Assembly (NCBI GenBank): GCA_050253075.1
Contig: JBFWJS010000002.1
Location: 591,571-655,570 of the forward strand
Direction of reading: 5' to 3'
Origin: Deferribacterales bacterium
GTDB lineage: Bacteria; Chrysiogenota; Deferribacteres; Deferribacterales; Geovibrionaceae
DNA length: 64,000 nt
In this document: positions 47,376 to 63,988 of the stretch, in pieces
How the letters are laid out: every line of letters begins with the position of its first letter
Position numbering within the stretch: the first letter of the stretch is position 1
The notes under the pieces: model-generated
Databases searched by the model: none
Told to the model about the DNA's origin: nothing
The model's input: only the letters and a program-made list of their open reading frames with translations
Position numbers and translations under genes: made by a program

Positions 47376-47668
47376 CTGGTCTCACTTCCAAGTTTATTGT
47401 AGAGTTCGCTTTTCAGCAGGCTTTCCTCAGCCTCGGTGATCTTCAGTCCGCGCACTTTCATGCCATAGACCACCCTGTCCCACTCGGCGTTGGCGCGTTT
47501 CCTGTTGTAAACGATCTCCGCCGTGTGGCATGTGCCGCATTTCTCTTCGACAATCTGTATCTTCTGTTCTCCGCAGCCTGTCAGCAGGCTAGCAGATACG
47601 AGGAAGAAGCTCACCGGCAGGCATTTCAATATGCCTTTTACCGCCGATTGCAGTTTCGAGAACAACAC
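47372..47668 (-). CDS. Small monoheme c-type cytochrome lipoprotein
   Basis: Lipobox LTGC, CGTCH, W.RVV..M; true start probably downstream of 47668. Confidence 0.7.
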   Translation of the reverse strand: MLFSKLQSAVKGILKCLPVSFFLVSASLLTGCGEQKIQIVEEKCGTCHTAEIVYNRKRANAEWDRVVYGMKVRGLKITEAEESLLKSELYNKLGSETR

Positions 47669-48572
47669 CTTTACCCTCTACCCTTCCCACGATAGCGGCA
47701 CGTTTGCCGTTTTCGCAGTTTTTTATATTTTCCAGAGCCTTTTCGGCATCTTTTTCACTTATAATTATAACAGCTAGCCCCTCATTCGCAACTGCCAAAG
47801 GGTCAAAGCCGAGCATATCGCACAGATAGCCTACATTTTCGTCCATAGGCAGGTCGGTCTCTTTTATCAGAAATCCCTTACCGCCGTCAGCGGCTATCTC
47901 GTTCAGCACTGCTGCCACACCGCCCCTTGTGGCGTCACGGGCAAATTTTACATCCATATCAGCAACAGCGGAGAAGACATCCACGAGGCACGCACAGTCA
48001 GAGAGAACCTCACCGTCGAAGCCGAGCTCGCCCCTTGCGAGCATGACGCTCATGCCGTGTCTGGCTATGTCTGATGTGAGGATGACGACATCACCCTCCT
48101 CTATCCTGCCGTGGTCTGTATAGTCCTTTACCGAGCGTCCTATGCCCGATGTGTTTATCATCAGTCCGTCGCATCCGCCCTTATCCACCACCTTCGTATC
48201 TCCGCAGACGATATTCACGCCTGCTTTCTTACACTCCTCTGCCATGCTGTCTATCACACGCTCAAGGTCGGCAACGGGGTATCCCTCGGGGATGATAAGC
48301 CCGAATGAGAGATACTGGGGCACTGCGCCCGAAACCAGAAGGTCGTTCATAGTGCCGCAAACGGCTATTTTGCCTATGTTTCCGCCGGGGAAAAATTCTG
48401 GGCGGACAACATAGCTGTCTGTAGTAAATGCTGTTTTTGATGTGGTATCGAGGAGGGCAGCATCGGATGCTTTTAACAGATGCTCGTTACCCAGTCGGGA
48501 AAATATTATATCTGAAACGAAACTGCGGGATGCAGAGCCTCCGCTCCCCACAGACATTGTAACTCTGTCCAT
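47589..48572 (-). CDS. hypE: Hydrogenase maturation carbamoyl dehydratase
   Basis: TTDSYVV.P.FFPGG.IG, GDTKVV, RDATRGG, NEG, C-terminal LPRIC. Confidence 0.97.
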   Translation of the reverse strand: MDRVTMSVGSGGSASRSFVSDIIFSRLGNEHLLKASDAALLDTTSKTAFTTDSYVVRPEFFPGGNIGKIAVCGTMNDLLVSGAVPQYLSFGLIIPEGYPVADLERVIDSMAEECKKAGVNIVCGDTKVVDKGGCDGLMINTSGIGRSVKDYTDHGRIEEGDVVILTSDIARHGMSVMLARGELGFDGEVLSDCACLVDVFSAVADMDVKFARDATRGGVAAVLNEIAADGGKGFLIKETDLPMDENVGYLCDMLGFDPLAVANEGLAVIIISEKDAEKALENIKNCENGKRAAIVGRVEGKGVVLETAIGGKRHIEMPAGELLPRIC

Positions 48573-50063: not shown

Positions 50064-50306
50064 ATGCCTATTTACGAATATGCGTGTGCATCATGCGGAA
50101 AAGTAACTGAGAAGCTGGTCAGCATGTCCGGAGACAACCAGACAACAGAGTGCGAATGCGGAGCTATGGCGGAAAAGATAATGTCTGCGTCTGCGTTTCA
50201 CCTGAAAGGCGGCGGCTGGTATTCACAGGGATACGGCAAAGATAAGTCCTGCCCTATGAAAGATACAAAGCCTGCATGCAGCAACTGCCCGGCAGCAGAC
50301 GTTTAA
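50064..50306 (+). CDS. FmdB-family zinc-ribbon protein
   Basis: MPIYEYAC..CG, F.LKGGGWY; start at ATG 50064 after GGAG. Confidence 0.88.
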   Translation: MPIYEYACASCGKVTEKLVSMSGDNQTTECECGAMAEKIMSASAFHLKGGGWYSQGYGKDKSCPMKDTKPACSNCPAADV

Positions 50307-50725
50307 GCCTGTCTTTTCTGCTTTACCAGTTTTGCTTTCAGGAAATCGCCTAAAACCTTATCAGACTTGCTCACGTGGCGCATGAGCCACCCTGCCATCA
50401 TCCTCTGCACAGCGAGAGGCGTCGCATGGTCTGCGCCTGATTCCTCGCATCTTTTCATCAGAGCGATGACATCCTCACGCAGTTTTGCATGCGCTTCGGT
50501 ATGGTTCGCATAGTCGTAAAAGTCGTATTGAAGCATTACTTTATTTTCGAGAGCGAGATGTGTTTCGCAAAAGTCCTTTAAGAAATCAAGAGCAAAAAAG
50601 ACATATTCGCGTCCCTCACCGTTTTTCATGGCGTCGGAGAGCTTATTCAGCTCAGAAATAAATCTCTTAGTAGAGTTATCCATGAAAGGGATCCCGCTTG
50701 AAAACTGTTCGTTATAAACAGCCAT
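50303..50725 (-). CDS. Bacteriohemerythrin-like protein (degenerate)
   Basis: H...E, H...H, WL..H....D motifs; first His ligand absent. Confidence 0.75.
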   Translation of the reverse strand: MAVYNEQFSSGIPFMDNSTKRFISELNKLSDAMKNGEGREYVFFALDFLKDFCETHLALENKVMLQYDFYDYANHTEAHAKLREDVIALMKRCEESGADHATPLAVQRMMAGWLMRHVSKSDKVLGDFLKAKLVKQKRQA

Positions 50726-50843
50726 CCTCACCCGCCTTAGATTTTGATCGATTATGTCATTTTATATGTTGTAATTCAACCAAAATAGTATATTTTGTTA
50801 CTTTATATCGCCATAAAAATGGTAAAGTTTAGCAAGGATTTAA

Positions 50844-51364: not shown

Positions 51365-51916
51365 ATGAAAAATGTTCTCGTAGTGCTCGGTCACTCAAAT
51401 TATGCAAATTCACTTTCAAACAAAACTATAATAGACACCATAAAGGACGCCCCGAACGTAACAGTGCGCAATCTTGACGATGTCTCGGAAAACTATGTCT
51501 TCGACGTTGAGGCAGAACAAAAAGCTATGGAAGCGGCGGACGTCATCGTCCTTCAGTTCCCGTTCCACTGGTATGCAGTACCTTCCATCATGAAGAAATG
51601 GTTCGACGATACACTGCTCTACGGCTGGGCATACGGCGAGGGCGGAGACAAGCTCGCAGGGAAAAAGCTCGTGATATCCTTCACCACTGGCGCACCTGAA
51701 ACAGCATACGTAGCAGGCGCAGGCAAAGGACACACAGCAAGAGAATTCCTGGCACCGATAACAGCAAGCGCAGCATTGTGTAATCTGGATCTGGCAGAGA
51801 TAATCGGTTCATACGGCATGATGTACATCCCCGGATTTGCAGGGGATAAAGATGAAGTAACAGCAAAGGCGAAACTCCACGCTGAGAAACTGGTCAGACT
51901 TTTCGAATCATTATAA
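51365..51916 (+). CDS. Flavodoxin-fold NAD(P)H:quinone oxidoreductase (KefF/YwrO family)
   Basis: DV.AEQ, QFP.HWY..P...K.W.D, GWAYG. Confidence 0.9.
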   Translation: MKNVLVVLGHSNYANSLSNKTIIDTIKDAPNVTVRNLDDVSENYVFDVEAEQKAMEAADVIVLQFPFHWYAVPSIMKKWFDDTLLYGWAYGEGGDKLAGKKLVISFTTGAPETAYVAGAGKGHTAREFLAPITASAALCNLDLAEIIGSYGMMYIPGFAGDKDEVTAKAKLHAEKLVRLFESL

Positions 51917-51932
51917 GAACGATATTCCATAT

Positions 51933-51971
51933 AAAAAATGCCTGCACGGCCGAAAGGTCATGCAGGCATTT
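51933..51971. terminator. Bidirectional intrinsic terminator
   Basis: AAAAAATGCCTGCA...TGCAGGCATTT between convergent genes. Confidence 0.8.
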
Positions 51972-51991
51972 CTATTTATCACCCGAAAATC

Positions 51992-53911
51992 TTACATGTA
52001 CTTACTGATAACTGCGTCTATACCTTCGATGAATTCCTCCACCGTGGACTGGAATCTGGACATCTCGTCCTTATAATCCCCGCCCGAGCGCACTCTGTTA
52101 GCCAGATCGGATGCATGTTCGTGCATCCTTTTGTGCTTTTCATCCAGAGCCGTGTAGTCTCTGTCTGAGCCGAAGAGCTTCATTCCTTCATGCCTGTAGT
52201 AGCTTGTGAATTCGCAGTTGTCGTATGAGCCTATTCTGAAGTCTTCGCCGTTGGTGATGCCGTGGAAGATGGTTCTCACCATCAGTACGTGGCTGACCTT
52301 TGCGTTTATCAGAGGGAGCACTTTTGACTCCAGCTTAAACTTTTTAAGCTCGTTCTCTGTGTCCTGCAGGAGGTTCACGACGCTCTCCACCCTGCCTATC
52401 ATGTCTTCTATACCGCCTGAGTTTTCACTGCTCATAACGGCTACGTTCTCTATGTTCACGGCAATCTGCGTCATCGCTGCGGACTGCTGCTGCACAGAGG
52501 AAGATATGTTTATCAATATAGAGTTCAGCTCTTCCACCGAGTCTTCGATGGTTTCGAACTTGCTGTTTGCCAGCTCGACCTTTTCAAGCTGCATGTTTAC
52601 GTTGTCGAGGGTGCTCTCAGCCTTTTTCACGGCGGTGCCTACCTTCGTCTGAATACTGCCGACGACCTTTGCTATGTCGCCTGCGGATGTGTTCGTCTTT
52701 TCCGCCAGCTTGCGCACTTCGTCTGCCACCACGGCAAATCCACGCCCGTGCTCGCCAGCTCTGGCGGCCTCTATTGCGGCATTCAGCGCCAGCAGGTTTG
52801 TCTGCTCGGTGATGTCTGTTATCACCATGATGATCTCGCCGACCTCTTTGGAGGCTTTCAGCAGTTCGCCCATCTCCACGGCGAGCCCGTTCACCATTGC
52901 GCTCACCTCGTTTGAGATGTCCGTGGTTTCTTTCATCACCACAACGCCCTCTTTTGAAACTGCAAGGGTCTCATTTGCCTTTACGGATGAGTGGCTTATA
53001 TTTTCCGCCGAGTCACGCACTGTCACGCTTATCTGCTCACTCGCAGCGGCGACCTCGCCCGCCAGCCTGTGTGTTTCCTCATTCATACTGCGCAGAGCCA
53101 GTGCAGAGAACGACAGCGGGAACACCTGCTCCATTATGTTTGATATAGAGCGGAATGTTTCGGATATATCCTTGCTTATGGTCTTCATAAAGCTGTTGTA
53201 GCTGTCTGATATCTCGCCCAGTTCGTCTGATGTGTTTATCTTCGACTCCAGCCCGAGGTCAAGGTTTGCCGCTGCCATCACGATTGTGTTCTGAAGCGAC
53301 ATGACCTTTTTAATGATCAATGTGCGAACAAGGAAATATATCAGCCCTATCAGAGCGATACCACCCAGCAGGATGAATATATCGGATATCAGAGACATCC
53401 TCTGGAATGCCACCATCGGCTCACGGCTGAGTTTCACTAGGTAATAGGAATTGACCTTTCCCTCTTCCCAGCTAGTGTGGCATCTGATGCAATAGCCTAT
53501 GGTCTTCACGGGGAAGTGATACGCCATAGCCATTCCGTCTATCTCAACCTCTTCATTTTCGCCGAAGCTGCTGGTGTCTATCTTCGCCCCGACCCTATCG
53601 GGGAGAGACGAGTATGATATAGTTCCGTCGGGCTGTACGAGGGAAAATTCGTTAACGTCCTCATACCTGCCTATCTCACTTATCATAAGCTGGAAGGAGT
53701 TCATGTTCCCCTTCTTCAGCGTGTCGTATGTAGACATATATATGATATCTTTCAGATAATTCATGTATCCGCTGAGGGAGTTTTCAGCCATTCTCAGCTT
53801 TACATTATCCAGGAATATCGTGCCGATGACTGTGATGCCCACCACGATAACGGTGGCCAGAGCCATCTTTTTATTCAGAGATATCTTCCGTTTATTCTTT
53901 CCGCCTATCAT
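51992..53911 (-). CDS. Methyl-accepting chemotaxis protein with periplasmic heme-c sensor domain and C-terminal CZB domain
   Basis: Two TM helices flank CIRCH; HAMP (DELGEI); [36 protein letters not shown]-terminal H...C.F...H..MH. Confidence 0.92.
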
Positions 53912-54870
53912 TTTTCACCCCTTTTCGCTGAGAGTGATTTAAAGTCGTTCCACTGAAGGTCTTTCACGTCCTTGGCCTCGACATAGATATTTTCTTTGAA
54001 CGGCCATTTCTCGTTTATACAGCCCACGCACGGAGCATTACTCTCCACACACACGTTTACGCTGCCGTTCCATCTGCGAAGCGGACAGTCGGATTTTGTG
54101 ATTGTGCCTCTGCACCCCTTTTTCAGCAGGCATGAGTGCTGGTCTTTTGCGTAGTCTTCCAGATATATGTCCTGCGAAAAGAACTGATATCTCGGGCAGT
54201 GGTTATGTATCAGATCGCCGAAATACTGTGTGGGGATGCCGTTTTCCATCTTCGGCATTTTACCCGTGCCGACGATGTATGCCACAGTGCCCATCAGCCT
54301 GTCAGGATGCACGGGACACCCGGGAATCTTTATCACAGGTTTGCTGATGTTTTCCCTTTTCATGTATTCTTCGATGGTTATGGCGCCTGTCTCATTTCTG
54401 CCTGATGCGGGGATACCGCCGTAGCAGGAGCACGAACCGCAAGCTACAACGGCAGAAGCTGTCTTTATGTGTTTCGCCAGCCCTTCGTAAAGGGTATCTT
54501 CACCGAGGAGGCACGCACGCTTCATCTTTGCGGGGATGCTCCCCTCCAGCACGAGGACATGCCCGCCCTCTGCCGTCACGCTGTTGAGCTGTTCGATGTA
54601 TTCCTCGCCCTGCGAAAATGACAGGGTCGGATGCACCTGCAGCCTCACCAGCTTCATTATAAAATCTATGAAGTCTATCTCGTTTCCGTATGCCGTGGAT
54701 GTAGTACACCCTGTACAGCTCTGCCCCTGTATGAATACGAGCTTTGGTCTGTCTGAGGAGCTTATCCTCATGAATCCTTCGGCTATCTGCGCTCCGAATA
54801 TCTCCGAACCGAAGACCGCAGCCGAGAGCCCCATGCAGTTTTTTAAGAAATTTCTTCTACTTATCATCAT
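53908..54870 (-). CDS. [NiFe] hydrogenase small subunit with Tat signal
   Basis: [34 protein letters not shown]...GC.G, DCP...WN, C...APC.GC. Confidence 0.93.
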
Positions 54871-54877
54871 GCACCGC

Positions 54878-56311
54878 CTAATGAACCGAACATGCAGTGC
54901 ATGGGTCGAAACTTCTTATCACTCTGCCCACTTCCACGGAACTGCCTTCGTAGTTTACGGGCGTTCCGAGGACTGCCTTTTCGGCTACCCCAGGCTTCCC
55001 GCCTACGGATGGGCCGAAATTCCAAGTGGAAGGAACTATCATCTTATAGTCCGTCACCTTGCCCTTCGATGCTTTTATGTGGTGTATAAGAGCGCCTCTG
55101 GCAGCGATGGAGAATCCTATCCCCTCGCCTGAAACAGGCTTGCTCAGGTCTATGCTTTTAATGGACGGATCGCCCATGACAAACTCTTCCGTGCGTGCAA
55201 AAAGGTATTCGCACAGCTTGACCGACTCAGTGGCACGGGCGAGTATCCTGCCCATGACAGACGACTTCATCTCTTTCTGCCCCAGCTTAGACATTGCTTT
55301 TTTGAACTCTGCATCGTCTGAGATTACAGCTCTTGCGAGGGGGCCTGTTTCGAGAGGTATGCCGTCATACACAGGAGTCTTTATCCAGCTGTATGCGCCC
55401 TTCGCATTTTCGTCGGGGCTGCCGTCGGGTTTGTAATATGAAGAATCTATCAGCTCTTTCACTTTGGAATAGTCGAAGTCCTGCTTCTTTCCGTCGGCAA
55501 TGACTCCCTGTGTGAACAGAGTGCCTTTCTTGGATGTGAATGCGCTGTGTGCATAGAATGTGTTATATGCTTCGCCTATGTCGAAATATTCGGGAAATCT
55601 CTCCGCTATCTCCATGACATCAGGCAAAAAGGAGCTGGTTACGAAATCCGCCGTCTTCTCAAGGGATTTGTAATACTTCATTATGGTGTCGGGGGTCATC
55701 TCTGTGGTTATACCGCCCGGCAGGAGCGCATGGATGAAAGGCACCTTTGCCCCGAGTATCGCAAGCCCCGATGCCGCCTCGCTGCGTATCTTTAAGGCCT
55801 GAAAATAATTCAGCACAAATCTGCGGGCAGAGCCTGCGTCTTTGATATAGTTGCCTTCGGTTTTGTTTATGAGGAATTTTGTACCCGACGAAGAGAGCCA
55901 GTCGGATATATCACGCAGAGCTTTGTCTCTGCCTGTGTAGCCTGCTGCTGCGGACAGATCGACATAGTCCGGCAGGCATAGGTTATAAAAATGGAGCAGG
56001 TGGTCTGTTATGATGTGCAGTCCCAGTATCATATCACGGAGAACCAGTCCGTTATGGGGCGGTGTTACACCGAATATCTGCTCCAGAGCCATAACTGACG
56101 AGACTCCGTGCACCTCGTGGCACACACCGCATATACGCTGGGCTATTCTGGCAGAATCTACGGGATGTCTGCCTATCAGCATACGCTCAAAGCCCCGATA
56201 CATATTTCCGGAAATCTTAACTTCTGTGACCCGCCCTCTCCCGACAGAGGTTTCCACACTCATATGCCCTTCTATACGAGTGATCGGGTCCATCTTAATA
56301 ATATTAGACAT
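54878..56311 (-). CDS. [NiFe] hydrogenase large subunit without C-terminal extension
   Basis: DPITRIEGH, RGFE, QRICGVC (L1), ARGAL.H, VPSTWN, RSFDPCTACSVH followed by stop (L2). Confidence 0.96.
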   Translation of the reverse strand: MSNIIKMDPITRIEGHMSVETSVGRGRVTEVKISGNMYRGFERMLIGRHPVDSARIAQRICGVCHEVHGVSSVMALEQIFGVTPPHNGLVLRDMILGLHIITDHLLHFYNLCLPDYVDLSAAAGYTGRDKALRDISDWLSSSGTKFLINKTEGNYIKDAGSARRFVLNYFQALKIRSEAASGLAILGAKVPFIHALLPGGITTEMTPDTIMKYYKSLEKTADFVTSSFLPDVMEIAERFPEYFDIGEAYNTFYAHSAFTSKKGTLFTQGVIADGKKQDFDYSKVKELIDSSYYKPDGSPDENAKGAYSWIKTPVYDGIPLETGPLARAVISDDAEFKKAMSKLGQKEMKSSVMGRILARATESVKLCEYLFARTEEFVMGDPSIKSIDLSKPVSGEGIGFSIAARGALIHHIKASKGKVTDYKMIVPSTWNFGPSVGGKPGVAEKAVLGTPVNYEGSSVEVGRVIRSFDPCTACSVH

Positions 56312-56618
56312 TTACGACCTCGATAATAATTTGGGTTCTTGTTTTTTAAATGAATCAATTGCAACCGACTGTTACTATTAGAGGTTTCACCATACGCCAC
56401 ACCACACGGCAATAGAAAACGCAGAAATAGAATGATAAACGCAAAAAATGCGCCTTTGAATTACAATTAAATTTTAGATTATGCAAATAAGGTGAGGATA
56501 TCGCCGATATTCTTCGGCCGATGTGAGCAGTAAATTAACATATATAACAAAACTGTGCAATATTTATGTAGAATGAGGCAGACAGAATTATTTAATACCT
56601 AAATTAATATTATAAGCA

Positions 56619-56655
56619 AATATCCCGATGAGACTCTCGCCTGCATCGGGATATT
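56619..56655 (-). terminator. Hairpin downstream of tatA
   Basis: AATATCCCGATG...CATCGGGATATT inverted repeat. Confidence 0.6.
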
Positions 56656-56689
56656 CCACTTTTATTACTACCACTTAAGTACTAATTGC

Positions 56690-56887
56690 TTACGATATTG
56701 CTTCGACGCTTTTCTCCGCCTTTTCGGGTGTGATGTCCATTGCATCTTCTGCTTCTTTTGTAGCCTTTTTAAAGTTGGTGAGCGCCTTGCCCATCCCTTC
56801 ACCTATCTGAGGGAGCTTTTTCACTCCGAACAGAAGCACAGCTATTACTAAGATTATTATTATCTCCTGAGAACCTAATCCAAACAT
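56690..56887 (-). CDS. tatA: Twin-arginine translocase TatA
   Basis: MFGLG..E....LLFG.KKLP..G..MG....FKK. Confidence 0.95.
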   Translation of the reverse strand: MFGLGSQEIIIILVIAVLLFGVKKLPQIGEGMGKALTNFKKATKEAEDAMDITPEKAEKSVEAIS

Positions 56888-56912
56888 ATATGCCTCCTTT
56901 ATCGGCTGTTCA

Positions 56913-57917
56913 CTATGCTTTTACCCCTTGCACAGTTATCGCCTTTGCCATACAGGAAAGTGCGCATATGCCGCACCCTGTACAGCTGTCTTGGTCTACT
57001 TTTATATTTACTATCTTCTTTCTGCCTTTTACCGTTTCGTACTCGCAGGTGTATACGCCGAATGCACACATTCGCTCGCACACACCGCATTTTCTGCATT
57101 TATCTGAATCTACACACACTGACGGCATCATGCCGCCTTCTCTCATTTTCCCGAGCAGTTCCTCTCCGCCCAGCAGTCTGATGTCATCGGCGAAACGTCT
57201 CTTAACGCCCGTGCCCGTGAGCACTGTCTTTGCCCTGTTCGCATCATTCTCTGATAGAGAATATACCACCTGTCCCACTGACTTCTTGGTCCGCCTGCCC
57301 ATAAGGCTGAAAAATTCCCGTCTGCTGACGAGCTGGCTGTCTTCGAGCCTCTTTTTTGCCTTACTTCTAACTTCTTTCTCGTAGGGAGCTGTCTCAATGG
57401 TCACTTTCCTGTCTGCAGAGGCAAAGATATCCTCTGCATGCCTCATCTCTTTTACTGCGGTTGCCATGCATTTATGCTTACATTCTCCGCAGTCGCCTGT
57501 CTGAAGTATTATCCTCTCTGCTCCTGCGAGGGCGGCCTTTACCAGTATCTTCCTGTCGACATATGCGAGGGTAGGCACGCCTATGGTCTTATCACCCCAT
57601 TTGTCTTTACAGGCGAAGACAGCCTGACTGTCTTCAGATATGCTCTCTTTCAGAGTGGAGAAGAGGCGGCTTTTGTCGGCGAGCTTTATCTGAAACACGC
57701 CGCTCTTACATGCGGAATAGCACTCTCCGCAGGCGGTGCACTTGTCCCAGTCTATGAGAACTTTGCCCCCTGCTTTGGTGATAGAGACTGCCCCGTGCGC
57801 ACATGCATCCATACAGTCGCTGCATTCAGATTTTTTATTCCTTACCCTGCTGCACAGACGGCTGTCTATCACGATAGTTTCATTCAGCCTGTCCAGCAGT
57901 CCGCCGAGAACACCCAT
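56913..57917 (-). CDS. Poly-[4Fe-4S] ferredoxin-like protein
   Basis: Multiple CxxCxxCxxxC motifs at both ends; internal SRREFF. Confidence 0.85.
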   Translation of the reverse strand: MGVLGGLLDRLNETIVIDSRLCSRVRNKKSECSDCMDACAHGAVSITKAGGKVLIDWDKCTACGECYSACKSGVFQIKLADKSRLFSTLKESISEDSQAVFACKDKWGDKTIGVPTLAYVDRKILVKAALAGAERIILQTGDCGECKHKCMATAVKEMRHAEDIFASADRKVTIETAPYEKEVRSKAKKRLEDSQLVSRREFFSLMGRRTKKSVGQVVYSLSENDANRAKTVLTGTGVKRRFADDIRLLGGEELLGKMREGGMMPSVCVDSDKCRKCGVCERMCAFGVYTCEYETVKGRKKIVNIKVDQDSCTGCGICALSCMAKAITVQGVKA

Positions 57918-57920
57918 ACG

Positions 57921-58643
57921 CTACTCCGTGATTTCGCTCAGGAAAATCATATCGTCTTCAAGAAACCCTTTAAGCATCAATGCGAAAGCCGGATAAAACT
58001 TTGTAGAAAGATCTTTTTCGGCAGATGCTACCTTGTCACAGAACAGGAAGGCCCAGCGAGATATATGTTTATTCAGAAACTCAAGCTGGGCTACTATAGC
58101 TTCCTCCGCATCATCGAAGTTGTTAGCTTCCATATAAGCAGCAGCCTTGCTGCTCATACGACCTACAAACTGAAGCTCCATTGCTAAGTGATCTTCCATC
58201 GTTCTGTCTTCTTGCGCTCGTTTAAAAAAGTGAGATGTAAAAAATGCTTTTACCTGCTCCCATGATTCCTGCTTTGTCAGGTGCTGAGGAGATGTATAAA
58301 CAGACTCATAGATAGGCACGGAAATCTTGCCCAGTATGAACAGTCTTGTATATTCCTTTGCTCTCTCATCCCTTGTCTCATCCAGAATGTCTGTTATGGA
58401 GAACTTCACCCCCATGAAGTCACGGAGCATTGCTGCCCCTTTGATCATGTTTTCGTTTTCTGAGCTTTCGGCTATCTCCAGCATCAGCTCGAATGTTTCG
58501 GCATAGAATGCATCCGCCTCAGCGTCAGAAGTATCTATAAATACTCTCGAAAAAACATTGTAAGCTACACTTCTGCCTGCAAATATATTCTGCATTTCCA
58601 GTGCTTGCATAATCCACCTCTTAGATATCGTTTGTAAAATCAA
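57921..58643 (-). CDS. TorD/DmsD-family redox enzyme maturation chaperone
   Basis: Y.RLF, P.YESVY, EDHL.MEL.F, FL..H...W. Confidence 0.9.
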   Translation of the reverse strand: MILQTISKRWIMQALEMQNIFAGRSVAYNVFSRVFIDTSDAEADAFYAETFELMLEIAESSENENMIKGAAMLRDFMGVKFSITDILDETRDERAKEYTRLFILGKISVPIYESVYTSPQHLTKQESWEQVKAFFTSHFFKRAQEDRTMEDHLAMELQFVGRMSSKAAAYMEANNFDDAEEAIVAQLEFLNKHISRWAFLFCDKVASAEKDLSTKFYPAFALMLKGFLEDDMIFLSEITE

Positions 58644-59934
58644 ATTCGTCCGGTCTGATGAGGTCTATCTTTATCTCTCTCATCGTCTTATATCCGTCGG
58701 TCTCTTCCACCACGTTATAAGTTAACGCCGCTTCGGAGACGCCCTCTATACTGCTCAGGTGCTTAGGGTGAAATTCGACTTTCAGCCCCCTTGCCTCTGA
58801 TATGTAATCCTCTATTCCATTTTTTCTAAAATATTTGACAGCCTTTGTGGCACTGCTTCCGTACAGCCTGACCGTCTTTATGAAGTGATCCCTTTCGGAA
58901 AGGTATTCAAAAGGCATGAGCTTCACGCCCGTGTTCTGTCCGTATATCTGCGATGTAAGCTTGTTTTCCAGACTGCAGTAATGAACGCCCATACCCAGAC
59001 CCTCCTCCGAAGCGTAACGGAGAAGTTCTATGCACTCCTCAGCACTGCCTGTGACCGGGAGACCGCCTGCATAGCCGTAGTCGTAAAAGACCTTGTATGG
59101 GCGTTCCTTTACTTTGAATCCGCGTGATCTGAACTTTTCATTGTTTATCCACGGGTAAAGGAATTCAAGTATATTGATCCCCTTACACCCCGCAGCGTCC
59201 AGATCTTTCAGGAGCTTTTTCATGACATTCAGCGTGCCCGGGATGACGGGCATCTCCACCATAGCAGAAGGTATATACCTGACTGCCAGTGCTACCTTAT
59301 CCACTGTTTCCTGCGGATATCCCGTGTCGGCAGCCTTTACACTTATTCTTATCTCGTCTAGTCCCGCATCGGCCAGTGACGCTGCCATTTCATCATCCAG
59401 AAAATCTCCGTTTGTATAGAGTCTCAGATGTGCTTCAGGGTATCTTGATCTGCACTCTTTAAAGAACTCCAGTGCCTTTTCAGGGAGTAGGAGCGGTTCT
59501 CCGCCCGTGAGAGCGATAGACCTGAACCCGCTGCCCGTGTCTGATGCAATCAGCTCTTCCAATGCATTGTTTATATTCTCGACAAAATAGTCGTAATTTT
59601 CCTGATTCATATTTGCGCAGAAGTAGCAGTCCTTATTGCACTTCAGCGTTTGAAAGACTGTCTTGGAACCTGCGCCTGTTCGGCAGTGTTCGCAAGCAGG
59701 GGATAGATGACCATAAGACAGGCTATGGCCGGAATTCCAGGAGATGATGCCGGCCATATCACGTAGCCTGTCAGGAAAAACATAAATAAAGGAGGTTTTT
59801 CCGTCGGTGTCGATTCCTGATTCTTTGACACTCTCCATAAAGTTTTCGTACGCTTCGATATGCCTTTCGGCATCTTTACGGAAAGTTTCATTATTTATTT
59901 CTGAAAGATTATTGCGGTCTAAAAATCTTATCAT
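58621..59934 (-). CDS. Radical SAM protein (COG2108-like)
   Basis: CNKDCYFC (CX3CX2C), upstream SPACEHC, TGGEP, LYTNG, EMPVIP, HYCS. Confidence 0.9.
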   Translation of the reverse strand: MIRFLDRNNLSEINNETFRKDAERHIEAYENFMESVKESGIDTDGKTSFIYVFPDRLRDMAGIISWNSGHSLSYGHLSPACEHCRTGAGSKTVFQTLKCNKDCYFCANMNQENYDYFVENINNALEELIASDTGSGFRSIALTGGEPLLLPEKALEFFKECRSRYPEAHLRLYTNGDFLDDEMAASLADAGLDEIRISVKAADTGYPQETVDKVALAVRYIPSAMVEMPVIPGTLNVMKKLLKDLDAAGCKGINILEFLYPWINNEKFRSRGFKVKERPYKVFYDYGYAGGLPVTGSAEECIELLRYASEEGLGMGVHYCSLENKLTSQIYGQNTGVKLMPFEYLSERDHFIKTVRLYGSSATKAVKYFRKNGIEDYISEARGLKVEFHPKHLSSIEGVSEAALTYNVVEETDGYKTMREIKIDLIRPDEFDFTNDI

Positions 59935-59948
59935 TTGCTTTCCTATTT

Positions 59949-59983
59949 AAAAAAAAGCGGAAGGGAGGGGCACTCCCCTCCGC
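59949..59983 (-). terminator. Intrinsic terminator between dmsB and the radical SAM gene
   Basis: Minus strand GCGGAGGGGAG...CTCCCTTCCGC followed by T8. Confidence 0.8.
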
Positions 59984-60001
59984 CATAGTTTTGGTTTACC
60001 T

Positions 60002-60616
60002 CTAGCTCTTTGGTTTAAAGAAGATAGATGGTAATGTATCGCCTGAATCGAGTGTATTGCCGTTTGCATCTCTATCTGTAGCAGGGAATCCTGTCACAGT
60101 TCTCACTGCTGTCGGATACTTTGCTGCGATCTCTTCGGCTGTACCGTAGTCGATAGCTCTCTGCGGGCATGATGCCACACATGAAGGAGCGAGCCCCTCT
60201 TCGAGTCTGTCCCAGCAGAAAGTACATTTCTGCATTGGGTGATCTACTGCCCAGCTTGAGTTTGGTACCGGTTCGCTCTCATCATCGCCGAACTGAGGTG
60301 CGCCGTAAGGGCAAGCCACAGCACATGCTTTGATGTTCTGACAGAGGTCACGGTTTACGATAACGATACCGTCCTCTTCTCTTTTATATATCGCGCCTAC
60401 CGGACAAGCTGCTGTACAAGCAGGGTTTTCACAGTGGTTACAGGATAAAACAAGGTTGAACACGTTAACGTTCGGGAATGTTCCTGATTCTTCTGTGCTC
60501 AGTCTTCTCCATCTAGCCTGACCGGGTTGAACATCGTTCCAGTCCTTACAGGCTACAACACAGGCATGACAGCCCATGCATCTATTTTGGTCAAAGTAAA
60601 ATGCCATTTGAGCCAT
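60002..60616 (-). CDS. dmsB: DMSO-reductase-family iron-sulfur subunit DmsB
   Basis: RCMGCHAC..ACKDWN, SCNHC.NPAC...CP, ACPYGAPQF, KC.FC, P.CV.SCP. Confidence 0.9.
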   Translation of the reverse strand: MAQMAFYFDQNRCMGCHACVVACKDWNDVQPGQARWRRLSTEESGTFPNVNVFNLVLSCNHCENPACTAACPVGAIYKREEDGIVIVNRDLCQNIKACAVACPYGAPQFGDDESEPVPNSSWAVDHPMQKCTFCWDRLEEGLAPSCVASCPQRAIDYGTAEEIAAKYPTAVRTVTGFPATDRDANGNTLDSGDTLPSIFFKPKS

Positions 60617-60626
60617 TTTAGTCCTC

Positions 60627-63551
60627 CTATGCTTTCGCTATTGTAACTTTACAGTCGTTGGCAGAAGTCATACCTTTACAGATCCTCGATGGACGTGCAG
60701 TTGTCAGTGTGTTTGCACAACCGCCGATATCGATACCGTTGGAGTTCTTCTGAGCCCATGAGCCCTGTCCGATGTATATGATCTTAGCAGGGACTCTCTG
60801 AGTTACATGTACTGATGCATACATCTTTCCTCTGTCGTTCTGGATGAGAACTTTGTCTCCGGATGTAACACCGATGTCGTTTGCATCTGACGGGTTGAGC
60901 CATATAGGTTCATACACGCCGTCGTCCCATACACCGTCGCCCCAGTCTCTGTTAGGATCGAGGAAGGCTTCGTTACCGTTGGCATCCTGTTTGAAGTTTT
61001 CGTTCAGGTATGCAACGTTGTTCAGTGTAGAGTGTGAACGGTACATTACGTGCCATGTGTGCAGAGTGTAATCGTATCCGCTGCCTTTTGTATCGAGCGG
61101 GTCATCGTGTACATACGGGCTTGTAGGGTCGGATTCGTCAACAGCGTGACGTCCTTCCACAGTCGGGATGTACATAGGGATAGGATATACGAATCTTCTC
61201 GCATCTGTTTTACCCACAGAGTCAGCATACGCACTGTAGATGTTTCCGCCGATAACTGCTGTACCGGGGCCTGCGTCTGTTGTAACTTCGTCGATGTTGT
61301 CATGATGTCTGGCTTCATAGTCTTCCATCATGGCAAGTGAGTAAGCCTCGAATTTACCTGTAGGTGTCGCAAGAGGACTGGCCTCAGGGTCGAGACGGAA
61401 AGCCTGGAACTGAATGTTGTATTCGTTTTCGTTGTATGTGGTATGGAGAGACGCAACGCCTTTCTCTACCCATTCATCATATGTCATGTTGTACTTGGCA
61501 GACAGGTTGGATGCTTCCCAGCCGTCTCTGAGACGTTCGTCCATACCTTCCTGACCTTCTGAATAACCGTCATAGTAGTCAGATTTAAGTCCGAGTTTAT
61601 CGGCGATACCGCCGCATATGTCGTATTCGGAAAGGACTTCACCGGGGATGTCTTTCACCTTATTCAGCCTGATACAAACTTCACCTGTACCCCAAGCATT
61701 TACAGCGCCCGGTTTTTCACCCTGCATTGTAGATGGGAGTATATAGTCTGCAATAGCTGCAGATGGTGTGAGGAAGTGGTCGAAGTTGACTATCATCTCA
61801 CATTTTGTTTTGTCGCTAAAGACGCCCATGTTGTAGTCTACGTCACCGGACTGGTTAACCATGATGTTACCGCCTGGGACGAAGATGATCTTACCGAATC
61901 CTTCGTGGATGGCTTTTACCTGACCGTCGTTCCATCTGGAATTTCCTGTACCTGCATTATCAACAGCATCAGGGATAACGAAAACAGGTATATCTGTTCT
62001 CGGACCTGAAGCAAGGTAGCTGATAGGAGATGTAACTCTTGTTGCATCGTAAAGTACAGATTCAAGATCAACACCGTTTCCTGCGCCCATGCCTACTCCA
62101 GGTGTGGATGCTGTTACGTTGTTTGTGTTACGTCCTGAACTCTGACCTGCAGCACCGAAGTTTTTAGAGAATACGCTGAAGATTCTGTTCAGCCATACAG
62201 CCTGCTCAGATTCAGTATGTCTCTGGTAACCGCCGCCGATCCATGTTGTTACTTTGTTGTTCATGTATGTAAGGGCGAGTTCTTTGATCTTAGCCACCGG
62301 AACACCTGTTATAGCAGAAGCCCACTCAGGTGTTTTAGCTCCCTGACCCCAGATCTTAACAGTTTTTTCGTAAAGCTCGTCAGCAGGATTTACGTTGTAA
62401 CCGATAGTATCGGGATAGATAGACACGGCATTGTTCAGACCTGCGAGTACTCCGCCGCCTGCTGGTGTAAGGTCTGTATCTGTACCCATAATGAATGCAG
62501 ATAAAGAACCGCCGTCAGGCACGCCGTAGTTAGCAGCAGGAACGTCTGCGTGTGCAGCAGCAATAGTGTTGCCTGTGTCGAAGAAGCCGTAGCAGTATTT
62601 TTTGATAAAGTCCGGATCAACGAGATCAGGATGCTCTTTCATGATGTAGTACATCATAGAAAGGAGAAGAGCTGCGTCTGTTCCCGGCATGATGTTTATG
62701 TATTCATCAGCGGCTGTTGCCACTGTTTTTGATACTCTTGTATCAACAGCGATAACAGGTACACCGCTCTCTTTAACCTGCTGGAGGTACCAGTTTGTGT
62801 TAGTACCGAATACAACCTCGTTAGGGTTGTAGCTCCAAAGAACGAGTACGTCAGCATTTTTAGCATCCTGACGTCCGTTACCGTAAGGTGAGCCGGTGTT
62901 TTTACCGTCTACGAAGTAGGATACGTGCTGCAGAGCAGGGAAGCTGTAGTTAGAGTAGTAGTATGTGTATCCGCCGGAAAGACCGAGAAGTCTGTGAAGA
63001 GAGTTTCCCGCCCAGCCGGATGCATCACCGGAAGAATAGATAGAATGTATACCTTTGCTTCCGTATCTGCCTATTACTTCGTTCATTTTAGCAGCGATCT
63101 CTGAGAACGCCTGATCCCATGAGATTCTCTGGAATCCGTTGATGTCGCCTCTGTTTCCTGTCTGTTTGAGAGGATACATGATACGGTCGTTACGATAGAA
63201 CCACTGTTTACGTGAACGGCATCTTACGCATGAACGGTATTCAGGGTCGTCACCGTTATTGAGCGGCTTGTCGCCTCTTTCATCTGTTACGATACGCTTA
63301 ACAACGCCGTCTTTTACATAATAACGGCTGACGCATCTACCGCCACAGTTGTGAGGTGTTCCCCCGGGGATTATCTCTTCCGTGATGGTAGGTACTTCGA
63401 TAGTATCGTCTTCTTCCATATATGTCTTGCCGCTTGAGCTTCCGCCGCCGCAACCGTAAAGGGCAGCAGTAGCACCGACAGCACTCGCTCCCTTAAGGAA
63501 GGTACGGCGAGTTACGTCTCTTGTGTTAAGAAGTTTATCTTTAAAACTCAT
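60627..63551 (-). CDS. dmsA: DmsA/YnfE-type molybdopterin oxidoreductase catalytic subunit, Tat lipoprotein
   Basis: RRTFLK and LYGC lipobox; HNCGGRC...C.R, NYS (putative Mo-ligating Ser), PGTD.A, TPEWA..ITGV, TPTGKFE, RSHST. Confidence 0.88.
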   Translation of the reverse strand: MSFKDKLLNTRDVTRRTFLKGASAVGATAALYGCGGGSSSGKTYMEEDDTIEVPTITEEIIPGGTPHNCGGRCVSRYYVKDGVVKRIVTDERGDKPLNNGDDPEYRSCVRCRSRKQWFYRNDRIMYPLKQTGNRGDINGFQRISWDQAFSEIAAKMNEVIGRYGSKGIHSIYSSGDASGWAGNSLHRLLGLSGGYTYYYSNYSFPALQHVSYFVDGKNTGSPYGNGRQDAKNADVLVLWSYNPNEVVFGTNTNWYLQQVKESGVPVIAVDTRVSKTVATAADEYINIMPGTDAALLLSMMYYIMKEHPDLVDPDFIKKYCYGFFDTGNTIAAAHADVPAANYGVPDGGSLSAFIMGTDTDLTPAGGGVLAGLNNAVSIYPDTIGYNVNPADELYEKTVKIWGQGAKTPEWASAITGVPVAKIKELALTYMNNKVTTWIGGGYQRHTESEQAVWLNRIFSVFSKNFGAAGQSSGRNTNNVTASTPGVGMGAGNGVDLESVLYDATRVTSPISYLASGPRTDIPVFVIPDAVDNAGTGNSRWNDGQVKAIHEGFGKIIFVPGGNIMVNQSGDVDYNMGVFSDKTKCEMIVNFDHFLTPSAAIADYILPSTMQGEKPGAVNAWGTGEVCIRLNKVKDIPGEVLSEYDICGGIADKLGLKSDYYDGYSEGQEGMDERLRDGWEASNLSAKYNMTYDEWVEKGVASLHTTYNENEYNIQFQAFRLDPEASPLATPTGKFEAYSLAMMEDYEARHHDNIDEVTTDAGPGTAVIGGNIYSAYADSVGKTDARRFVYPIPMYIPTVEGRHAVDESDPTSPYVHDDPLDTKGSGYDYTLHTWHVMYRSHSTLNNVAYLNENFKQDANGNEAFLDPNRDWGDGVWDDGVYEPIWLNPSDANDIGVTSGDKVLIQNDRGKMYASVHVTQRVPAKIIYIGQGSWAQKNSNGIDIGGCANTLTTARPSRICKGMTSANDCKVTIAKA

Positions 63552-63565
63552 ATTATACTCCCTAT

Positions 63566-63988
63566 CTATTTACTGTATTCATTGGGTGCGTGTGCACTCT
63601 TATGGCATGTAAAGCAGGTTGTCTCCTGAATCGGGTAATGACAGCTGCTTGTACAGTGACGATTTACAGGTTCTCTCCAGCCCGGTCTGTGAGATGCAGG
63701 CGGAGTCTCCTGGTGACACTGTATACATGAGTCCTCTCTATGGCAGGAACTGCAGGAATCGCTGTCCCATCTGGCCTCAATACCGTGGCCTTTCTTTATC
63801 CAGCCGTTGGTGTGGTTTCTCGGAGGTGTGTCCTGATGACACTTAATGCATGAAACCTCCTCCACGTGGCACTGGAGGCACTCGGATTTATCTATCTTGC
63901 TGGCATTGCCGTGACGCTCGATCCATGAAGTGTCGTGTGTAGACGGCTTCTCGGAGCTCACTGCATAAGCCACAAGAGACGTTGCCAT
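63566..63988 (-). CDS. Multiheme c-type cytochrome (5 CXXCH plus 1 CX3CH); probably 5'-truncated by the window edge
   Basis: CLQCH, CIKCH, CSSCH, CIQCH, CTSSCH, CFTCH; the frame stays open to position 64000. Confidence 0.88.
   Translation of the reverse strand: MATSLVAYAVSSEKPSTHDTSWIERHGNASKIDKSECLQCHVEEVSCIKCHQDTPPRNHTNGWIKKGHGIEARWDSDSCSSCHREDSCIQCHQETPPASHRPGWREPVNRHCTSSCHYPIQETTCFTCHKSAHAPNEYSK

Follow-up and report, generated by a model that had tools for sequence, protein, structure and literature searches.

A tail-less [NiFe]-hydrogenase with a Tat signal, paired with a heme c chemoreceptor, as a probable periplasmic hydrogen sensor in Deferribacterales

The hydrogen sensors listed in the available part of HydDB are the kinase-linked [NiFe] group 2b, the putative diguanylate cyclase-linked group 2c and the putative chemoreceptor-linked [FeFe] group C2, none of which belongs to group 1. 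Those that have been characterized are, in the portions of the literature available, cytoplasmic group 2b enzymes, and hydrogen taxis has been demonstrated in Methanococcus maripaludis, in a report whose accessible part names no receptor (PMC3817446). Here we describe a three-gene unit from a Deferribacterales bacterium (GCA_050253075.1), found in a 64,000-nucleotide stretch of contig JBFWJS010000002.1 (positions 591,571 to 655,570; hereafter the window), which encodes the large and small subunits of a [NiFe]-hydrogenase and a methyl-accepting chemotaxis protein (MCP) with a heme c domain. We put the probability that this unit is a periplasmic H2 sensor passing electrons to the receptor heme at about 0.7. 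The pairing recurs in many anaerobic bacteria, and the module would most likely let them sense H2 outside the cytoplasm.

The regulatory hydrogenases (RH) of group 2b, HoxBC with HoxJ in Cupriavidus necator and HupUV with HupT, resemble the window system in having a tail-less large subunit, protease-free maturation, a co-encoded signalling protein, three iron-sulfur (FeS) clusters and a likely low abundance. They are cytoplasmic and kinase-linked, however, whereas the window system has a twin-arginine translocation (Tat) signal and a periplasmic heme partner; its L1 motif contains CGVCHEVH where the HydDB 2b rows have CGICSxSQ, and in the tree it is placed, unlike them, on the side of group 1. 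Closest in sequence are the group 1a enzymes, exemplified by the NiFeSe hydrogenase HysAB of Desulfovibrio and Desulfomicrobium, which also have a Tat-type small subunit without an anchor and three FeS clusters. The window system differs from HysAB in having no tail, no protease, the large subunit encoded before the small one, cysteine in place of selenocysteine, an L1 motif and a 98% clade of its own, a fixed receptor partner and low codon adaptation. A cleavable tail and a maturation protease are typical of group 1, and the window enzyme has neither. Naturally tail-less [NiFe] enzymes are listed for groups 2b, 2d, 4c, 4e and 4g in the accessible part of PMC7294309. As far as the available HydDB descriptions extend, [FeFe] group C2 ('chemotactic (putative)') and [NiFe] group 2c ('DGC-linked (putative)') likewise tie a hydrogenase to an MCP or a diguanylate cyclase, but the C2 enzyme is of the FeFe type and forms a fusion with the MCP, the L1 motif of the 2c row is CGICSTTH, and neither description includes export or a heme c receptor. 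The preliminary description of this DNA had taken the tail-less end as a sign of the sensory RH type (HupUV/HoxBC) and had raised a group 2c-like assignment; both suggestions fall, since the large subunit is group-1-like and its L1 motif, its tree position, the Tat signal and the filing of the closest named relative under 1a in HydDB lead us to reject membership of 2b or 2c.

On the receptor side, the nearest described proteins are the sCache_heme sensors (GSU0582, GSU0935, DcrA and Tll0287), which share with the window receptor family a single Cache domain, a CxxCH motif between two transmembrane (TM) helices and fusion to MCP, kinase or GGDEF/EAL outputs. The window receptor is unlike them in that neither of the two sCache_heme models, PF11845 and PF21563, matches it and in that it has its own signature, GxM plus CxRCHxxW. 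The accessible part of PMC8396549 reports that GSU0582 and GSU0935 switch heme ligation and spin with redox state, at -156 and -251 mV. The main text of two 2026 preprints on Cache_heme proteins has no mention of a hydrogenase partner.

All three genes lie on the reverse strand. The large-subunit gene (54878..56311; 477 amino acids; PF00374, E 9e-96) stops exactly at DPCTACSVH with no cleavable tail. It lies 7 nt from the small-subunit gene (53908..54870; 320 amino acids; PF01058 and PF14720; TIGR00391, 179.9 bits), whose open reading frame (ORF) shares an ATGA at 53908-53911 with that of the MCP (51992..53911; 639 amino acids). The small subunit begins with a twin-arginine signal peptide (54775..54870, reverse strand) bearing the motif SRRNFLK, of the form S-R-R-x-F-L-K, and its sequence suggests probable cleavage after AEG. 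Its peak 19-residue hydropathy of 1.28 leaves no TM anchor. The subunit carries a ligand set for three FeS clusters, of which we take the medial one to be a [4Fe-4S] cluster by virtue of an extra cysteine, C274, the mapping of the clusters being our assumption. Neither a maturation protease nor a cytochrome b gene occurs within the unit; the genome has two HycI-type proteases, each beside one of its two tailed hydrogenases. These gene junctions, the tail-less end, the unanchored Tat subunit, the missing protease and cytochrome b, and a CIRCH motif between the two TM helices of the MCP had all been read from the DNA in the preliminary description, and all are confirmed.

The large subunit has the motifs L1 AQRICGVCHEVH and L2 SFDPCTACSVH. 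Residues E14, C61, C64, D103, R405, C471, C474 and H477 are all present and invariant in a 55-row alignment, and H2 turnover is expected of an enzyme in which E14, D103, R405 and the metal ligands are intact. The lack of a tail is a family trait: among the best 120 homologues listed, the window's own included, 117 stop at the L2 histidine, two are fragments and one has six extra residues. The closest named large subunit, from Denitrovibrio acetiphilus, is 78% identical, and NiFeSe/group 1a enzymes give the best matches in NCBIfam and the PDB (PDB E 2.6e-82). In the available portion of the HydDB supplement, the D. acetiphilus and Flexistipes relatives are entered as group 1a, anaerobic uptake, and only their rows contain the CHEVH motif. 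Quick trees were built from a choice of 65 of 109 rows, with four rows that their motif marks as RH-like serving as the root. These four form a separate 100% branch, and the window enzyme lies on the side of group 1, in a clade with 98% support. Another tail-less lineage, which carries the same type of receptor, is placed near the window clade; a single clade for both receptor-linked lineages is neither rejected nor demonstrated (approximately unbiased test, p 0.39). Four HydDB 1a rows (Desulfobacter postgatei, Desulfobacula toluolica, Desulfurivibrio alkaliphilus and Desulfotalea psychrophila) resemble this second lineage, a likeness judged by eye from sequences cut before the C-terminus. At residues 402-405 the window large subunit (P0001) reads IAARG in place of the usual EAPRG; the proline beside the canopy arginine is replaced by Ala, Ser or Gly across the clade, and AARG is found in other groups too. 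A plasmid search for the hydrogenase returned distant enzymes only, at no more than 32% identity among the 30 matches listed.

The receptor has the two TM helices (residues 16-34 and 177-195) and the signalling domain (52439..52876, reverse strand; PF00015, E 3.8e-43) of a methyl-accepting chemoreceptor, and Che machinery is present in the genome. Between the helices lies a periplasmic single Cache domain (53405..53794, reverse strand), identified by fold matches and alignment, with the GxM (M70) plus CxRCHxxW signature and the heme c attachment motif CIRCH at residues 141-145 (53477..53491, reverse strand). All 27 of the 27 heme domains aligned share G68, M70, C141, R143, C144, H145 and W148, and the full signature recurs in 113 of 113 further proteins, which were chosen by the same profile and probably include a few training members. 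An AlphaFold model of the domain (pLDDT 89) places helix H102-105, with the CxxCH, between strands E89-97 and E114-123. Its fold matches WalK (Z 12.1) and Tll0287 (Z 10.2, root-mean-square deviation 2.9, 112 aligned), and the Foldseek matches include GSU0935 and GSU0582; the domain is a single Cache fold and therefore kin to sCache_heme. In the Atlas, PF11845 and PF21563 are neighbours of the domain at 0.87-0.91. At E 0.1 neither model matches either of the hydrogenase-linked receptors of the genome, while other loci of the same genome do match, with four PF11845 domains and one PF21563 domain. A single-sequence PDB search with the heme domain found nothing useful, and a profile search reached GSU0582 at E 0.35 only. 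Complex prediction for the small subunit, receptor domain and heme gave 0.00, 0.44 and 0.25 in three runs (median 0.25, against a mark of 0.32), with no folded controls. The HAMP-like stretch after TM2 is seen by eye and has no Pfam match. The C-terminal CZB zinc-binding domain (52106..52291, reverse strand) claimed in the preliminary description stands as to its His/Cys/His/His ligands H541, C566, H593 and H597, which are kept in 10 of the 10 CZB-bearing relatives shown, the window's own included; it does not reach the Pfam cut-off (PF13682, 24.7 bits for the whole protein and 28.7 for the domain against 29.4), and one relative scores 35.1.

We surveyed 63 genomes of the order, 17 of which hold 23 large-subunit matches at E <= 1e-100. 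A heme receptor of the TM-CxxCH-TM type is the next gene after the small subunit in 22 of the 22 evaluable loci, the 23rd running into a contig edge. The pairing extends outside the class: in three genomes picked by large-subunit similarity alone (G063-G065), all three combine a tail-less large subunit and a Tat small subunit with a diheme MCP. The synteny that the preliminary description had proposed to look for is thus found both within the order and beyond it. Receptor outputs vary across the order: an MCP with CZB in 10 loci, an MCP in 8, PAS-PAS-GGDEF with fused or adjacent EAL in 3 and a truncated form in 1. Two genomes with no flagellin match, G014 and G016, carry the GGDEF-EAL form. 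The conserved unit is the hydrogenase plus the heme-Cache input domain, and taxis is just one of several outputs. A protein search returned 346 heme-domain proteins, from sources including Desulfobacterales, Magnetomorum, Desulfosarcina and Omnitrophota; among the matches listed they are mostly MCPs, two being kinase-type.

Tailed enzymes provided the control. Large-subunit patterns located 79 metagenome loci (13 tail-less, 64 tailed and 2 unclear); the scan returned mostly other group-1 enzymes. A heme receptor is present in seven of the eight tail-less loci having at least 1.5 kb downstream (6 distinct, two sharing one sequence), and the window-type heme domain in none of the 64 tailed loci, of which 44 have at least 1.5 kb and 32 at least 3.5 kb downstream. 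Within the order, tailed uptake loci have the heme receptor in 0 of 20 cases and a protease in 13 of 20, and a protease is found in 0 of 30 module loci. One candidate receptor locus, L074, was dropped, its CxxCH gene looking FolD-type by eye. A contig scan with a single protein as query gave two loci. Run over the order, the receptor profile marks 30 places, 22 of them module loci (21 of these in the training set); a hydrogenase lies beside the receptor in none of the seven examined among the eight non-module places.

The source genome encodes four group-1 large subunits, two in tailed uptake enzymes resembling relatives filed in HydDB as groups 1c and 1f, and two tail-less. At least one other group-1 large subunit is present in 17 of 17 carrier genomes. 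On a self-consistent codon index (genes that by eye resemble those of GroEL, EF-G and ribosomal proteins are in its top set), the six module genes stand at the 23rd-52nd percentiles and the four uptake subunits at the 77th-98th; with the source genome's weights applied, the module large subunit lies below the uptake one in 13 of 14 other genomes. As a proxy only, low codon adaptation together with the extra group-1 enzymes is what one would expect if the enzyme has a minor, signalling part and does not serve respiration. Gene anatomy, fixed pairing, absent uptake partners, output swapping and low codon adaptation are what we observe, and a sensory role with the heme receptor is well supported by synteny, controls, output swapping and codon adaptation. 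Of the earlier proposal that an exported hydrogenase steers the cell via the receptor, the sensory coupling is thereby well supported; electron transfer to the heme, co-transcription and steering of the flagella are inferred, and taxis is one output beside the GGDEF/EAL forms.

In the mechanism that we propose, the common Hyp proteins would supply the large subunit with its NiFe site, with no proteolytic step, and the L-S pair would be exported by Tat. Electrons from H2 would run via the three FeS clusters to the Cache c-heme, directly or by a short relay, and the altered redox state or ligation of the heme would be transmitted through TM2 to the cytoplasmic output. The H2 couple lies near -414 mV, and reduction of the heme by H2 is thermodynamically open because the potentials of the Geobacter homologues (-156 and -251 mV) lie above it. 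The MCP domain would feed a Che pathway, most likely for H2 taxis, with a GGDEF/EAL enzyme in its place in relatives; the periplasmic pool would reoxidise the heme and reset a dedicated, low-abundance sensor. The source genome has members of the TatC, cytochrome c assembly, flagellin and CheW families, and its 11 CheW-domain matches make flagellar control likely, not certain.

Several observations weigh against this reading. The catalytic residues resemble those of an ordinary active enzyme, and the gas-channel positions that we take to be Ile/Phe in RH, as is visible in the HydDB 2b rows, are Val63 and Leu111 in the window enzyme (the first is Ile in some clade members). The synteny counts come from kindred genomes, so that the events are non-independent, and the codon comparison elsewhere borrows the weights of one genome. 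The tail-less enzyme of L066 has no receptor, its small subunit precedes the large one and it has no RR motif. The diheme receptors lack the GxM methionine. One receptor with the full signature (L127, 6628-9306, in G020) has no adjacent hydrogenase, the module lying elsewhere in that genome, and the same holds for the looser receptor homologues L128:6378-8303 and L129:6693-8552 as to adjacency; because such orphans exist, the pairing is strong, not absolute. The orphans also favour an unlikely reading in which the receptor is a nitric oxide (NO)/carbon monoxide (CO) or general redox sensor of the sCache_heme kind, whose signal is not H2, and the hydrogenase either keeps its heme ferrous or is co-expressed because such gases poison hydrogenases. 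GSU0582 and GSU0935 bind NO and CO in the accessible part of PMC8396549, and a signalling-type sCache_heme protein is reported, in the part of PMC12889525 available, as an NO sensor with tight binding. Moreover, a weak alignment (E 0.35, numbering inferred) puts Met60 of GSU0582 on Leu65, with the invariant Met70 five residues on, so that the distal site could be open. Against this, the PF11845 and PF21563 proteins of the genome lie elsewhere and neither family matches the hydrogenase-linked receptors, and such a sensor leaves unexplained both the fixed pairing with a partner-less hydrogenase and the second heme in G063-G065.

The enzyme could also be an ordinary soluble periplasmic group 1a uptake hydrogenase feeding the cytochrome c pool, with a receptor that reads the redox state of the pool (energy taxis) and no specific coupling. 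The anaerobic uptake role predicted in HydDB for the 78%-identical relative, which counts against a sensor, would suit this account, as would the periplasmic NiFeSe enzymes among the best PDB matches, the 17 genome ORFs with three or more CxxCH motifs and the tailed enzymes of L062, L086 and L093, whose surroundings include a tetraheme cytochrome and a distant heme MCP. We nevertheless hold it to be quite unlikely, as 117 of the 120 homologues listed have no tail, the 30 module loci have no protease, the receptor family tracks tail-less enzymes only, codon adaptation is low and the module is always additional to other group-1 hydrogenases. It is very improbable that the hydrogenase signals by contact or conformation without electron transfer, or that its Tat motif is vestigial and the enzyme remains in the cytoplasm, acting on the receptor's cytoplasmic portion in the manner of HoxBC and HoxJ. 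The signal peptide is indeed weakly hydrophobic with acidic residues, the small subunits of the window lineage end in a conserved C-terminal DxxW helix in the alignment, and tail-less large subunits typify cytoplasmic RH in the accessible part of PMC7294309. However, it is the cytoplasmic outputs that vary and the periplasmic heme domain that is the constant partner, and all of the aligned small subunits (22 of 22) retain RR-x-F, in several cases together with classic AEA/ADA cleavage sites.

Several loci show variations on this arrangement. The source genome has a second copy of the module (G000:C2:448157-452143) in the order L-S-MCP, with a 52% identical large subunit, a CLRCH motif and an MCP without CZB; the two copies may sense different H2 or redox ranges. 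The diheme receptors (L134:4550-6397, L135:6301-8145 and L136:6628-8454) have their second CxxCH in an insertion and no GxM, and the added heme fits an electron relay. The module locus of G018 is a natural mutant, an insertion element (L026:6421-7950) between the small-subunit gene and the MCP splitting the 3' end of the former; the element has terminal inverted repeats of 15 bp and a target duplication of 7 bp and contains a transposase-like ORF of 473 residues. A multiheme cytochrome c is encoded next to the orphan receptor of L129, a hint that domains of this type may pair with other periplasmic redox proteins. In L062, L086 and L093 the order is tailed S-L, protease, tetraheme cytochrome c and then the distant heme-Cache MCP, and L062 and L086 also have what looks by eye like a TatC gene; these loci may encode a separate taxis system, for H2 or redox state, that runs in parallel and uses a cytochrome as relay.

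The terminator assigned to the end of the unit holds up as an intrinsic-terminator-like hairpin with a U-run (51930..51972, reverse strand; -25.3 kcal/mol, z -3.99, 1 of 200 shuffles equally good) that lies 20 nt beyond the MCP stop. A terminator scan did not list it, the probable cause being the loop-size limit of the scan, and it is probably shared with a convergent flavodoxin-like oxidoreductase gene (51365-51916, forward strand). Upstream of the large subunit, the AT-rich intergenic region 56312..56689 (378 nt, GC 34%) is the likely, putative promoter region of the unit, although sigma-70-like promoter matches are at chance level in the 8 kb scanned (14 vs 10.9 +/- 3.0). Beyond it an operon at 56690-63988 (reverse strand) encodes a multiheme cytochrome, a Tat molybdopterin oxidoreductase, an FeS subunit, a radical SAM protein, a chaperone and a polyferredoxin, followed by what we take from its motif to be a TatA-like gene. 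A hemerythrin gene (50303-50731, reverse strand) and a gene with AIRS domains that is presumably HypE-like (47589-48572, reverse strand) lie on the other side. Elsewhere in the genome, the region G000:C3:294830-297285 holds nitrogenase-like genes (by eye) that are among the most codon-adapted; nitrogen fixation would give an internal H2 source.

Literature searches returned no description of the module; Greening 2016 (ISME J) and bioRxiv supplements lay outside their coverage and may bear on it. A table in PMC12727194, in the part available, counts 87 MCP genes near [NiFe] large subunits without a description of the module. The module is real and conserved, and probably represents a sensory hydrogenase whose compartment, ancestry and coupling are new. 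At somewhat better than even odds, it represents an undescribed class of group-1-derived, tail-less, Tat-exported H2 front ends of dedicated heme c Cache receptors, in which the electron is the signal and the outputs are MCP, GGDEF/EAL and probably histidine kinase. The predicted export of a tail-less, protease-independent enzyme makes it relevant to maturation studies. The locus offers a concrete three-protein candidate for H2 sensing, and the question is directly testable because the receptor heme gives a simple optical read-out. If the proposal is true, a block of HydDB group 1a is misassigned as uptake enzymes and some of the group 1a 'uptake' hydrogenases counted in metagenomes may be sensors, and the locus would provide a named receptor for bacterial hydrogen taxis.

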